From a bacterium (GTDB taxonomy: Bacteria; Patescibacteriota; UBA1384; CAILIB01): DNA of 54,605 bases. The translations under genes and the position numbers were made by a program. The notes beneath the pieces are model-generated. The model did not search any database, was not told the origin of the DNA, and worked only from the letters and a program-made list of their open reading frames with translations. Where the stretch lies: positions 1 to 54,605 of the forward strand of contig JBAXRQ010000003.1 in NCBI GenBank assembly GCA_037131105.1. Reading direction: 5' to 3'. Each line of letters begins with the position of its first letter. Position 1 is the stretch's first letter. This document shows positions 42,811-44,383 of the stretch, in pieces.

Positions 42811-43362
42811 TTACGCCTGAGCGTAAGTCGGGGCGGCGGTACCGTCAGCGTTACGGACAGTATACGCAATCTGGATGTTAGCCGTACCGCCCGAGGTATA
42901 GTTACCAGCGGTGGCGAAAATAAGCTGAACAATCAGATCGCTGGTACCCACGTTACTCCACAACGCAATGTTCGTAGTATTCGGGGACATCGTAGTACGT
43001 CCAGCAGCAACAGTAGACGTAGCACTAATCTGTGCCAACTGAGTAGCCGCCGCAAAGTTAGACGAAAGACCCAACGTTGCATTACCCGTCTGAACCGTCA
43101 GCGTTGTCGCTGCAGTAGCGCCTACAAACGCTGTAATGACATCAACAATGATGTCATGGATAACCGCGCCAGCCGGGAGAACCGCAATAGCCGTCGTAAC
43201 GCCCGTATACGGTGCAGCGGCAGAAACGCCAGCAGGGGTCGTATACGAAGCAGTCTGGGTGACTACTGTCGCGCCCGTGTTACGAATCAGACCAGCCGTC
43301 GAACCCGTCGTATTCTTGACGGTACCGAGCAGCCACGGACCAAGGTGAGTTGCAAGACCCAT
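42811..43362 (-). CDS. Capsid decoration/cement protein
   Basis: Directly after the major capsid gene; MGLATHLGPW...; LPAGAVIHDIIVDV jelly-roll-like beta pattern; AAGGAG RBS. Confidence 0.6.
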   Translation of the reverse strand: MGLATHLGPWLLGTVKNTTGSTAGLIRNTGATVVTQTASYTTPAGVSAAAPYTGVTTAIAVLPAGAVIHDIIVDVITAFVGATAATTLTVQTGNATLGLSSNFAAATQLAQISATSTVAAGRTTMSPNTTNIALWSNVGTSDLIVQLIFATAGNYTSGGTANIQIAYTVRNADGTAAPTYAQA

Positions 43363-43368
43363 AAATCA

Positions 43369-43426
43369 CTCCTTATGCACAAGTTGCCATGTCATCTGTG
43401 CATTGTCCCGTTAGGGCTGACATGGC
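43369..43426 (-). promoter_or_regulatory. Structured RNA leader (pseudoknot or alternative helices) abutting an RBS
   Basis: 9-bp GCCAUGUCA/UGACAUGGC helix, CCC-UAAC-GGG hairpin, and a crossing AUGCACAG/UUGUGCAU helix ending at AAGGAG. Confidence 0.55.
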
Positions 43427-43428
43427 TC

Positions 43429-43465
43429 AAAAAATTAGTGGGGGGAGAGGTTGCCCCCTCCCCCC
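43429..43465 (-). terminator. Terminator after the major capsid gene
   Basis: 11-bp G/C-rich stem with GCAA loop (43440-43465), then ACUAA and U6. Confidence 0.75.
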
Positions 43466-43471
43466 GTATCA

Positions 43472-44383
43472 TCAGGTCGAACCAGCCGAACCAAAGGCAC
43501 CCAGCGGGTCACTCCAACCGAAGCTGTAACGCTCGCGGCTCTTGTAACGCACGTTGCCAGTGTCGAAGTCGCCGTCCATGCTGTTAGCCAGCGGAGTACG
43601 GACGAAGTGCTTCAGGCCATTCGGGACATCAGTCAGCAGGTACCAGCTATTGCTGTCCGTGATGAAGTGATTGACCTTGTAGCCTTCCGGAACCGAACCC
43701 ATCGCCTTCAGCGCGTTGATGTCGTTGTCAGTGGTGCCGACACGGAGTTCCGTATCCAGCAGCCGCTTGGCAACGAACATCAGGCCCGGAGGGACAACCA
43801 GCTTACGCGGCTTGGCCGCGATGAGCAGACCGCGCTCATCCGTCCACGCCGCGATCTGAATGACCGCAGCCTCAAGCGAAGTCTCGTTGAGATCTGCCTG
43901 AGTGGTGAACGTGTTGCTGTTAGAAGCACCATTAACCAGAGGATGCGCCGTCGAGAACAGCGCCACACCATCGCCACCAGTCACAGCGGCACTAAAGCCG
44001 TTGTTGATGACCGAAGCACCCTTAACCTGCTTCGTATACGCCATCGCCCGAGCGAGCGACTTCGTATAACGCTTGCTGAGTGAGTCGTACAGGTTGTCCT
44101 CAATCGCCTCTTCCGTCAGGGAGAAGCCAAGAGCAATCGTCTCATGGTTATAGCGAGCGGTCCATGCTTCCTGCGCGTTGTCGTACTGGATGCCCGAACC
44201 TTCCGACTTGACAGGAGCCGCCGAGAAACCCGACAGCTTCGTCTCTTCTTCAAAAGAACGTTCCGAGGTCTCTACCTCAAACAGTTCCTTATGCTCCTCG
44301 CCGTAGGTCGCATACTCCATACCGAACAGAGCGTTCAGGCCGGGGAGCAGTTCCTTGAGGAGTTGTGCGCGTGAAATAGCCAT
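43472..44383 (-). CDS. Major capsid protein
   Basis: MAISRAQLLKELLPGLNALFG, SERSFEEE, EEAIEDNLY, DFDTGNVRYKSRERYSFGWSDP; high GC codon bias; AGGAG RBS. Confidence 0.92.
   Translation of the reverse strand: MAISRAQLLKELLPGLNALFGMEYATYGEEHKELFEVETSERSFEEETKLSGFSAAPVKSEGSGIQYDNAQEAWTARYNHETIALGFSLTEEAIEDNLYDSLSKRYTKSLARAMAYTKQVKGASVINNGFSAAVTGGDGVALFSTAHPLVNGASNSNTFTTQADLNETSLEAAVIQIAAWTDERGLLIAAKPRKLVVPPGLMFVAKRLLDTELRVGTTDNDINALKAMGSVPEGYKVNHFITDSNSWYLLTDVPNGLKHFVRTPLANSMDGDFDTGNVRYKSRERYSFGWSDPLGAFGSAGST

Follow-up and report, generated by a model that had tools for sequence, protein, structure and literature searches.

A conserved pseudoknotted RNA leader precedes the capsid cement gene in hundreds of aquatic phages

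Results

Organization of the capsid–cement spacer

The window (the whole 54,605-nt stretch of DNA analysed here) carries on its minus strand the gene for a 303-aa major capsid protein (43472..44383; PF25209 Phage_capsid_4, Mu-like gpT; phrog_371 major head protein), which adjoins the gene for a 183-aa protein (42811..43362). The capsid gene terminates with tandem in-frame stops (UGA UGA, 43472-43477, minus strand), and the same TGATGA ending is present in several relatives (L008, L011, L012, L022 and others). A terminator scan detected a G+C-rich hairpin of 11 pairs, 9 of them G-C, immediately downstream (43440..43465, minus strand). No other strong terminator-like site turned up in the 20 kb of structural operon that was scanned. 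The sequence-only reading of this DNA had described the hairpin as a terminator preceding a folded RNA. The stem is indeed strong, but the U6 run (43434-43429), which ends the ACUAA-U6 segment at 43429..43439, begins 5 nt past it. Homologous hairpins follow the capsid gene in relatives, with a U-run contiguous with the stem. Owing to this difference, the window terminator is probably leaky, and the displaced U-tract suggests that it attenuates transcription, part of which would continue into the cement and tail genes.

Read back from the minus strand, the element between the U6 tract and the downstream gene is identical to the layout first drawn for it. After a GA dinucleotide, the 5′ strand of helix b (GCCAUGUCA, 43418..43426) pairs with its 3′ strand (UGACAUGGC, 43386..43394), and the resulting 9-bp helix encloses G 43417 and the 3-bp hairpin c (43407..43416), in which CCC (43416-43414) and GGG (43409-43407) flank the 4-nt loop UAAC (43413-43410). 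The junction ACA (43404..43406) leads into the 5′ strand of helix d (AUGCACAG, that is AUGCAC(AG), 43396..43403), which runs into the AGA preceding b3′ (43395..43397). The linker AAC (43383..43385) then separates b3′ from the 3′ strand of helix d (UUGUGCAU, that is (UU)GUGCAU, 43375..43382), so that helices b and d interleave. As initially noted, d3′ ends exactly at the Shine-Dalgarno sequence of the 183-aa gene (AAGGAG, 43369..43374), which lies 6 nt (UGAUUU) ahead of the AUG at 43362-43360.

We evaluated this arrangement with 2000 dinucleotide-preserving shuffles of the 60-nt spacer, scoring the summed base pairs of the best pair of crossing helices. The spacer scores 17 bp whereas the shuffles peak at 14 and none (0/2000) reaches 17, which argues that the helices are not a product of chance. 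The crossing of the 9-bp and 8-bp helices originally proposed is real, but only the inner 6 bp of helix d (AUGCAC/GUGCAU) are supported by the family described below. We rejected the extension of d by an A-U and a G.U pair, as the GA before b3′ is invariant whatever its partner. Since the additional pairs would use this near-invariant GA, the effective linkers in the window are AGA and AACUU, and not A and AAC.

The nested minimum-free-energy fold of the window RNA (43350-43428, minus strand) reaches -21.4 kcal/mol, compared with -16.1 for b and c, by pairing the b 5′ strand (GCCAUGUC) with the AUG region and the CCC of c with the GG of the Shine-Dalgarno sequence. We discarded this fold, which hides both initiation signals, as idiosyncratic to the window, since RNAalifold detected no conserved counterpart in the relatives.

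A family of longer, four-helix leaders

Using the capsid protein as a query, we retrieved 80 IMG/VR loci (82-91% identity; the best 80 of at least 600), the post-capsid spacers of which show a longer version of the window element. Parsing identified 49 clear cases, which were aligned with MAFFT (alignment A1) and used to build a covariance model, R1, from the nested helices b and c only. This seed set was picked by a structure-aware parser, a bias from which the gene-anchored alignment A6 and the set A3 from metagenome-assembled genomes (MAGs) are free. R1 matches the window at 43367..43441 on the minus strand (36.2 bits, E 2e-5) and nowhere else, either in the 54.6-kb window or in the rest of the 1.3-Mb assembly. 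Searching the window together with the 80 capsid-matched loci returned 71 matches, one per source, which corresponds to 70/80 loci. The model also matches 26/43 capsid-matched contigs from GTDB MAGs of many phyla, as well as 80/80 loci fetched through the downstream protein alone, in which no RNA criterion was applied and the match ends ~4 nt before the gene. Near-complete phage genomes contain exactly one copy (12/12), and the element is present in the metagenome-assembled phages DSL-LC04 and ct7L0027. R1 finds no element in the cultured Planktothrix phage Pag-Yong1 or Roseobacter phage CRP-902.

R1 likewise finds no copy in 60 relatives of the window's assembly, which have genomes of 0.5-1.3 Mb, and a host origin of the element was rejected on this ground. 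The most plausible reading of the 54.6-kb contig is a phage genome that was binned together with a bacterium of small genome size. MAGs assigned to a dozen different phyla contain near-identical capsid modules, often on 50-63-kb contigs. This pattern indicates that free phage genomes were swept into the bins, whose labels therefore do not reveal the host. One capsid relative (L113, 71% identity) sits 8-14 kb from the end of a 466-kb Pseudomonas MAG contig and may be integrated or chimeric, unlike the rest of the group, which appears as free genomes of ~60 kb. The podophages that carry the leader are mostly from freshwater and very abundant, and IMG/VR contains more than 595 relatives of the cement gene.

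The conserved family form is a leader of ~75-80 nt with the strand order a-b-c-a′-c′-d-b′-d′, in which helix a crosses b and c, and b crosses d. From its 5′ end, the consensus consists of a -10 box (often with a -35 box), 1-3 nt, the 5-nt a5′ strand, a junction of 4-8 nt, and a b5′ strand of 9-10 nt. The middle part comprises an A, the 3-nt c5′ strand, N, the 5-nt a3′ strand, the 3-nt c3′ strand, A-C-N, and a d5′ strand of 6-8 nt. The leader ends with (N)GA, b3′, a linker of 3-7 nt (often NACUU), d3′, the Shine-Dalgarno sequence, a spacer of 6-9 nt and the AUG. The loop of hairpin c in the relatives is thus N followed by the 5-nt a3′ strand, and helix a pairs the first nucleotides of the transcript with this loop.

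Compensatory changes support all four helices

The four helices are paired in 90.2% of the cells of the plain MAFFT alignment A1, 93.4% of A2, 87.4% of the independent MAG set A3 and 93.5% of A6, which was retrieved by protein only and anchored on the gene. Slid controls gave 31-38%, 26-37%, 30-38% and 24-43%, respectively, and double changes were found at 22/24 pairs in each alignment. In none of the four did a column shuffle attain the covariation score of the real alignment, although neither the slid nor the shuffled controls are to be taken as phylogeny-corrected probabilities. Every pair of b (all 10 in the family) and of d shows double changes, as do 4/5 pairs of a. Hairpin c is 100% paired in all alignments; two of its pairs covary and its C-G closing pair is invariant. 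The support for a and d does not derive from model fitting because neither helix was paired in R1, and RNAalifold recovers c and d unaided from the plain MAFFT alignment. Paired cells contain 187 G.U against 92 A.C combinations, an excess expected for an RNA of the minus strand.

Outside the covarying pairs, the near-invariant positions are the A before c, the AC after c (A 70/71, C 67/71) and the GA before b3′ (G 65/70, A 70/70), and only about six unpaired positions are strongly conserved. The compensatory changes in both crossing helices identify b and d as an RNA pseudoknot, and the four covarying helices as a conserved structure. The sequence-only reading had proposed a real, selected RNA fold and named the absence of covariation in homologous spacers as an outcome that would count against it; covariation was found across ~160 distinct homologous spacers, in addition to the outcome of the shuffles. 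The reading had also raised the possibility that the 3-nt linker is too short for both helices to form fully, as in a two-state switch. Our data do not support this suggestion, as both helices covary, share no nucleotides and keep a constant geometry throughout the family (b of 9-10 bp, linkers of ..GA and of 3-7 nt).

The length of b and that of the linker are anticorrelated (r = -0.63) and their sum is roughly constant, indicating an architecture of fixed size. In a classical H-type geometry, a linker of 3-7 nt would not be able to track the groove of a coaxial 9-10-bp helix, so either d may pack non-coaxially or the outer pairs of b may breathe. The sole alternative pairing with comparative support uses helix a and is absent from the window copy. 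In one large clade, a5′ can also pair with a*, a second copy of a3′ located close by and overlapping the first nucleotides of b5′. At least 4 bp of a5′/a* pairing is found in 42/92 copies (10.6 +/- 2.5 expected), with at least nine compensatory types: CCGG/CCGG, CUGG/CCAG, CCGA/UCGG, CCAGG/CCUGG, CCAAG/CUUGG, CGGGU/ACCCG, GCGG/CCGC, CCAA/UUGG and CCCG/CGGG. This pairing, which is also missing from the CUAGG and most CUGGG clades, could be a switch or a guide for co-transcriptional folding.

Promoters and the 5′-shortened window copy

The relatives usually have a sigma-70-like promoter: a5′ lies 7-10 nt past the end of a -10 box, mostly TATATT, in 59/82 copies, and 14 copies have a perfect TTGACA -35 box spaced by 16-18 nt. 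This arrangement indicates that the leader starts a transcript in most of these phages, with helix a engaging its first nucleotides. Neither a sigma-70 scan nor a search for the family GGTGTATATTG box found a promoter in the window. The loci L048, L123, L197 and L085 are also promoterless, with a terminator hairpin directly followed by the element, and keep helix a.

The window copy is the only one among ~160 distinct copies in which helix a is missing, its c loop (UAAC) having no complementary 5′ strand. Its closest relatives, L086 (91% capsid identity and the same type of terminator), L016 and L137, keep helix a. The window copy nevertheless has the traits of the R1 leader, with b of 9 bp, c of 3 bp, d of 6-8 bp and both ACA and AGA. 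Since b, c, d and the AC and GA bases are intact, the core is still under selection. Judged from this comparison, the window element is a 5′-shortened copy of the conserved leader. It is thus a member of a larger four-helix family, usually with its own promoter, which the sequence-only reading had overlooked. The lack of helix a and of a recognisable promoter implies that at least part of the family function is dispensable or different in the window phage.

The downstream gene encodes a putative cement protein

The AlphaFold2 model of the 183-aa protein (pLDDT 73.7) was compared with known structures using Foldseek. The best PDB matches are the cyanophage Pam1 capsid entry 7eel_H (E 8e-5), the KHP40 and KHP30 cement proteins and GP4 8h89_J; 7dou_4 matches with E 1e-3. 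Overall, E values range from 8e-5 to 4e-3, with modest TM scores of 0.36-0.55. The protein has no Pfam or PHROG match, and its annotated homologues are named 'cement protein' or 'minor capsid protein'. The modelled fold therefore agrees with the initial proposal of a capsid decoration protein, and the predicted product resembles the trimeric capsid cement proteins of the Pam1, KHP30/40 and GP4 type, whose hallmarks are a small beta-sandwich fold and a gene neighbouring that of the major capsid protein. Proteins of this type assemble as trimers on three-fold and quasi-three-fold axes, and the GP4 capsid contains 540 capsid and 540 cement copies, in equimolar amounts (PMC9698820).

The downstream proteins of the family are very diverse (15-49% identity) and have in common only an N-terminal M-x-x-(S/T)-T-(F/H)-x-G-P motif and an LPAG motif; the first ~12 codons of the cement gene are also conserved. 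The Pam1 cement protein binds the capsid through an extended N-terminal loop (PMC9698820), which explains the conserved N-terminus without invoking RNA binding.

Coupling to the ribosome-binding site

The Shine-Dalgarno sequence starts at most 1 nt from the end of d3′ in most copies, the distance between the two ranging from full overlap to 5 nt. At least two of its nucleotides lie inside helix d in 33/155 copies and at least four in 11/155. In the subclade of L003, L175 and L137, d5′ is anti-Shine-Dalgarno-like (CCUCAA or CUCCUC) and d3′ is the Shine-Dalgarno sequence itself (e.g. UUGAGG). By abutting or including the Shine-Dalgarno sequence, d3′ physically couples the pseudoknot to the ribosome-binding site. 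The helices leave both the Shine-Dalgarno sequence and the AUG free in most copies, the window included, so that initiation is not necessarily blocked by the fold. RNAalifold found no conserved alternative pairing hiding either signal in the relatives, and an anti-Shine-Dalgarno sequence in the a-b junction was rejected as it is not enriched (22 observed versus 24 +/- 3 in shuffles).

Other spacer types

Two further conserved spacer types were observed among the capsid relatives. In L001, L002, L018, L023, L032, L041, L054-L056, L070 and L077, the capsid gene is followed by a second type of leader, which consists of a -10 box, UUACCUGU(R)(W)C(K)AAG...(C)AGGAG and the AUG. The gene behind it is a different one, inserted between those for the capsid and cement proteins, and its product starts M..LPKTR.EAKA.GA..YFTG.PC. 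A CCUGU/ACAGG pairing present in several copies would place the Shine-Dalgarno sequence inside a hairpin. The third type (L021, L024, L027, L047, L072, L007 and L030; ..UUGCAGCGCCGUGCUGCRCCAUUUUUACAGGGG..) contains a GCAGC-N-GCUGC hairpin and precedes a gene for a product starting MEFTLTIDFG.

In Pag-Yong1 (L082, 4940-5012), the spacer between the capsid and 'minor capsid protein' genes shows, by eye, interleaved complementarities in a similar order and no hairpin c. They comprise CCCGGGG/CCCCGGG, CCGUCUCC/GGAGACGG (which contains the Shine-Dalgarno sequence) and CAUGUC/GACAUG (which contains the AUG). This spacer, which R1 does not detect, may be a diverged analogue hiding both signals.

Discussion

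Our analysis shows that a conserved and uncatalogued leader sits before the cement gene in hundreds of aquatic phages. We propose, with a probability of roughly 0.55, that it acts in cis to control the start of translation of the cement gene, and that it probably also shields the mRNA. Behind this proposal stand the covarying structure, the strict association with one gene, the occurrence of the leader once in each genome, the surrounding promoter and terminator signals and the fold of the cement protein. Helix b encloses hairpin c and a single-stranded d5′, which pairs with the 6-8 nt ending at the Shine-Dalgarno sequence. As d3′ ends there, the fold decides what the 30S subunit encounters at the ribosome-binding site. 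In nearly all relatives, helix a additionally ties transcript positions ~+2 to +8 into the c loop. Acting in cis, as RNA, on the cement mRNA, the leader would match cement output to that of the capsid protein, which is made from the preceding, terminator-closed unit.

The leader could instead act mainly as a barrier to decay, an explanation that we regard as unlikely. Exoribonuclease-resistant RNAs (xrRNAs) of flaviviruses and plant viruses are ~70 nt long, have few conserved unpaired bases and form three-way junctions in the 3′ UTRs of eukaryotic RNA viruses; a closing helix has its 5′ flank paired into the interior, and the interior paired to the 3′ flank. By analogy, the double pseudoknot would cap the 5′ end and block 5′-end-dependent decay, either by an RNase J-type 5′-3′ exonuclease or by RNase E entry and scanning, thereby prolonging the life of the cement mRNA. 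Both flanks of the closing helix b pair with its interior, as in the flaviviral topology, helix a begins 1-3 nt past the predicted transcription start, and the scarcity of conserved unpaired bases fits a function based on shape. At the promoterless loci (the window, L048, L197 and L123), the downstream cistron would be protected after upstream cleavage. However, a simple 5′ hairpin is normally enough to stabilise an mRNA, b, c and d are intact in the window copy despite the absence of helix a, and the likeness to xrRNAs is topological only, with no similarity in sequence or to the models of xrRNA families in Rfam 15. In favour of this reading, viral xrRNAs are reported to stop bacterial RNase J1 as well (PMC5760640). 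We find it slightly less likely still that the leader is a sensor, that is an operator for a phage protein (such as unassembled cement or capsid protein, acting autogenously) or a small-molecule riboswitch that stabilises d at the Shine-Dalgarno sequence. Its layout is riboswitch-like, spanning the transcription start to the Shine-Dalgarno sequence with variable helices around near-invariant A, C-G, AC and GA, and with a 3′ pseudoknot strand that abuts or includes the Shine-Dalgarno sequence; the a5′/a* pairing of 42/92 copies has the signature of two exclusive conformations. Precedents for sensing leaders include the T4 gene 32 leader pseudoknot, P22 scaffold autoregulation, preQ1-II and SAM-II. 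Yet the family conserves far fewer unpaired positions than metabolite aptamers of like size, no Rfam riboswitch matches even at E<=10, and the a/a* switch is missing from the window and from the CUAGG and most CUGGG clades. Moreover, all that the cement proteins share is an N-terminal motif that is a capsid-binding arm in Pam1 (PMC9698820).

A self-cleaving ribozyme, or a defined RNase processing site splitting the cement mRNA from the capsid transcript, is very unlikely. Small ribozymes are common in phages, and the element is small, pseudoknotted, furnished with invariant junction bases and, in the window and several relatives, placed directly after a terminator hairpin. Most copies are nonetheless at the 5′ end of a transcript, where cleavage would have no obvious purpose, and a CUGANGA match is confined to the clade with c3′ = CUG. 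We rejected an identity with HDV-like, twister, pistol, hatchet and hammerhead ribozymes, as no Rfam ribozyme model matches and, compared by hand, the order of strands and helices differs. The helices might also reflect complementarity by chance or a site acting at the DNA level, such as an operator or a linker for recombination between the conserved capsid and variable cement genes, which would agree with the location at the border of a conserved and a hypervariable gene and with the conservation of the first cement codons. Given the covariation, with hundreds of compensatory double changes, this explanation is effectively refuted, and the outcome of the 2000 shuffles and the G.U excess on the mRNA strand also speak against it. 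Last, we entertain as a tentative and rather unlikely possibility that the leader is a new pseudoknot class with an active mechanism: a switch of a5′ between a* and the c loop that would respond to a phage or host factor and so time cement synthesis, or the first phage counterpart of xrRNAs, which would protect a late mRNA.

The proposed translational leader, which the sequence-only reading could not assign to a named family, belongs to none: a search of Rfam 15 with the window and 20 full-length relatives yielded 0 matches at the gathering threshold and, at E<=10, nothing but terminator-hairpin look-alikes. A structured, pseudoknotted leader at the ribosome-binding site is a familiar kind of element. 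The preQ1-II and SAM-II riboswitches and the E. coli rpsO/S15 leader are alike in having a 5′-UTR pseudoknot whose downstream strand reaches the Shine-Dalgarno sequence, and variable helices around conserved junction bases. The cement leader differs from them in strand order, in its embedded hairpin, in its usual second pseudoknot at the 5′ end, in leaving the Shine-Dalgarno sequence mostly outside the helix, and in its phage structural gene context. The T4 gene 32 leader is also a pseudoknot in a phage mRNA, ahead of a gene whose product is needed stoichiometrically. It is, however, a single H-type pseudoknot ~40 nt upstream of the ribosome-binding site that nucleates cooperative gp32 binding, whereas the fold described here has four helices and reaches the Shine-Dalgarno sequence. 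The int-alpA motif (RF02996) is likewise a conserved folded RNA directly before head genes of uncultivated phages, but gives no match and differs in size and architecture. In the part of the phage candidate structured RNA survey considered here (PMC10690425), the cement leader is not described, although it may be there anonymously, and the T4 gene 32 pseudoknot is said to have no Rfam model either. Within the reach of these searches, the family is new, as are its four-helix double-pseudoknot architecture and its exclusive link with the cement gene.

Few structured RNAs are known from phage late operons, and these findings contribute a well-supported one, a compact four-helix double pseudoknot, which is also a candidate for a new regulatory or nuclease-resistant fold. 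Naturally occurring variants differ in the presence of helix a, in the presence of a promoter and in the position of the Shine-Dalgarno sequence inside or outside helix d, and constitute a ready mutational series. The leader thereby offers a tractable model for how phages balance the synthesis of capsid and cement proteins.
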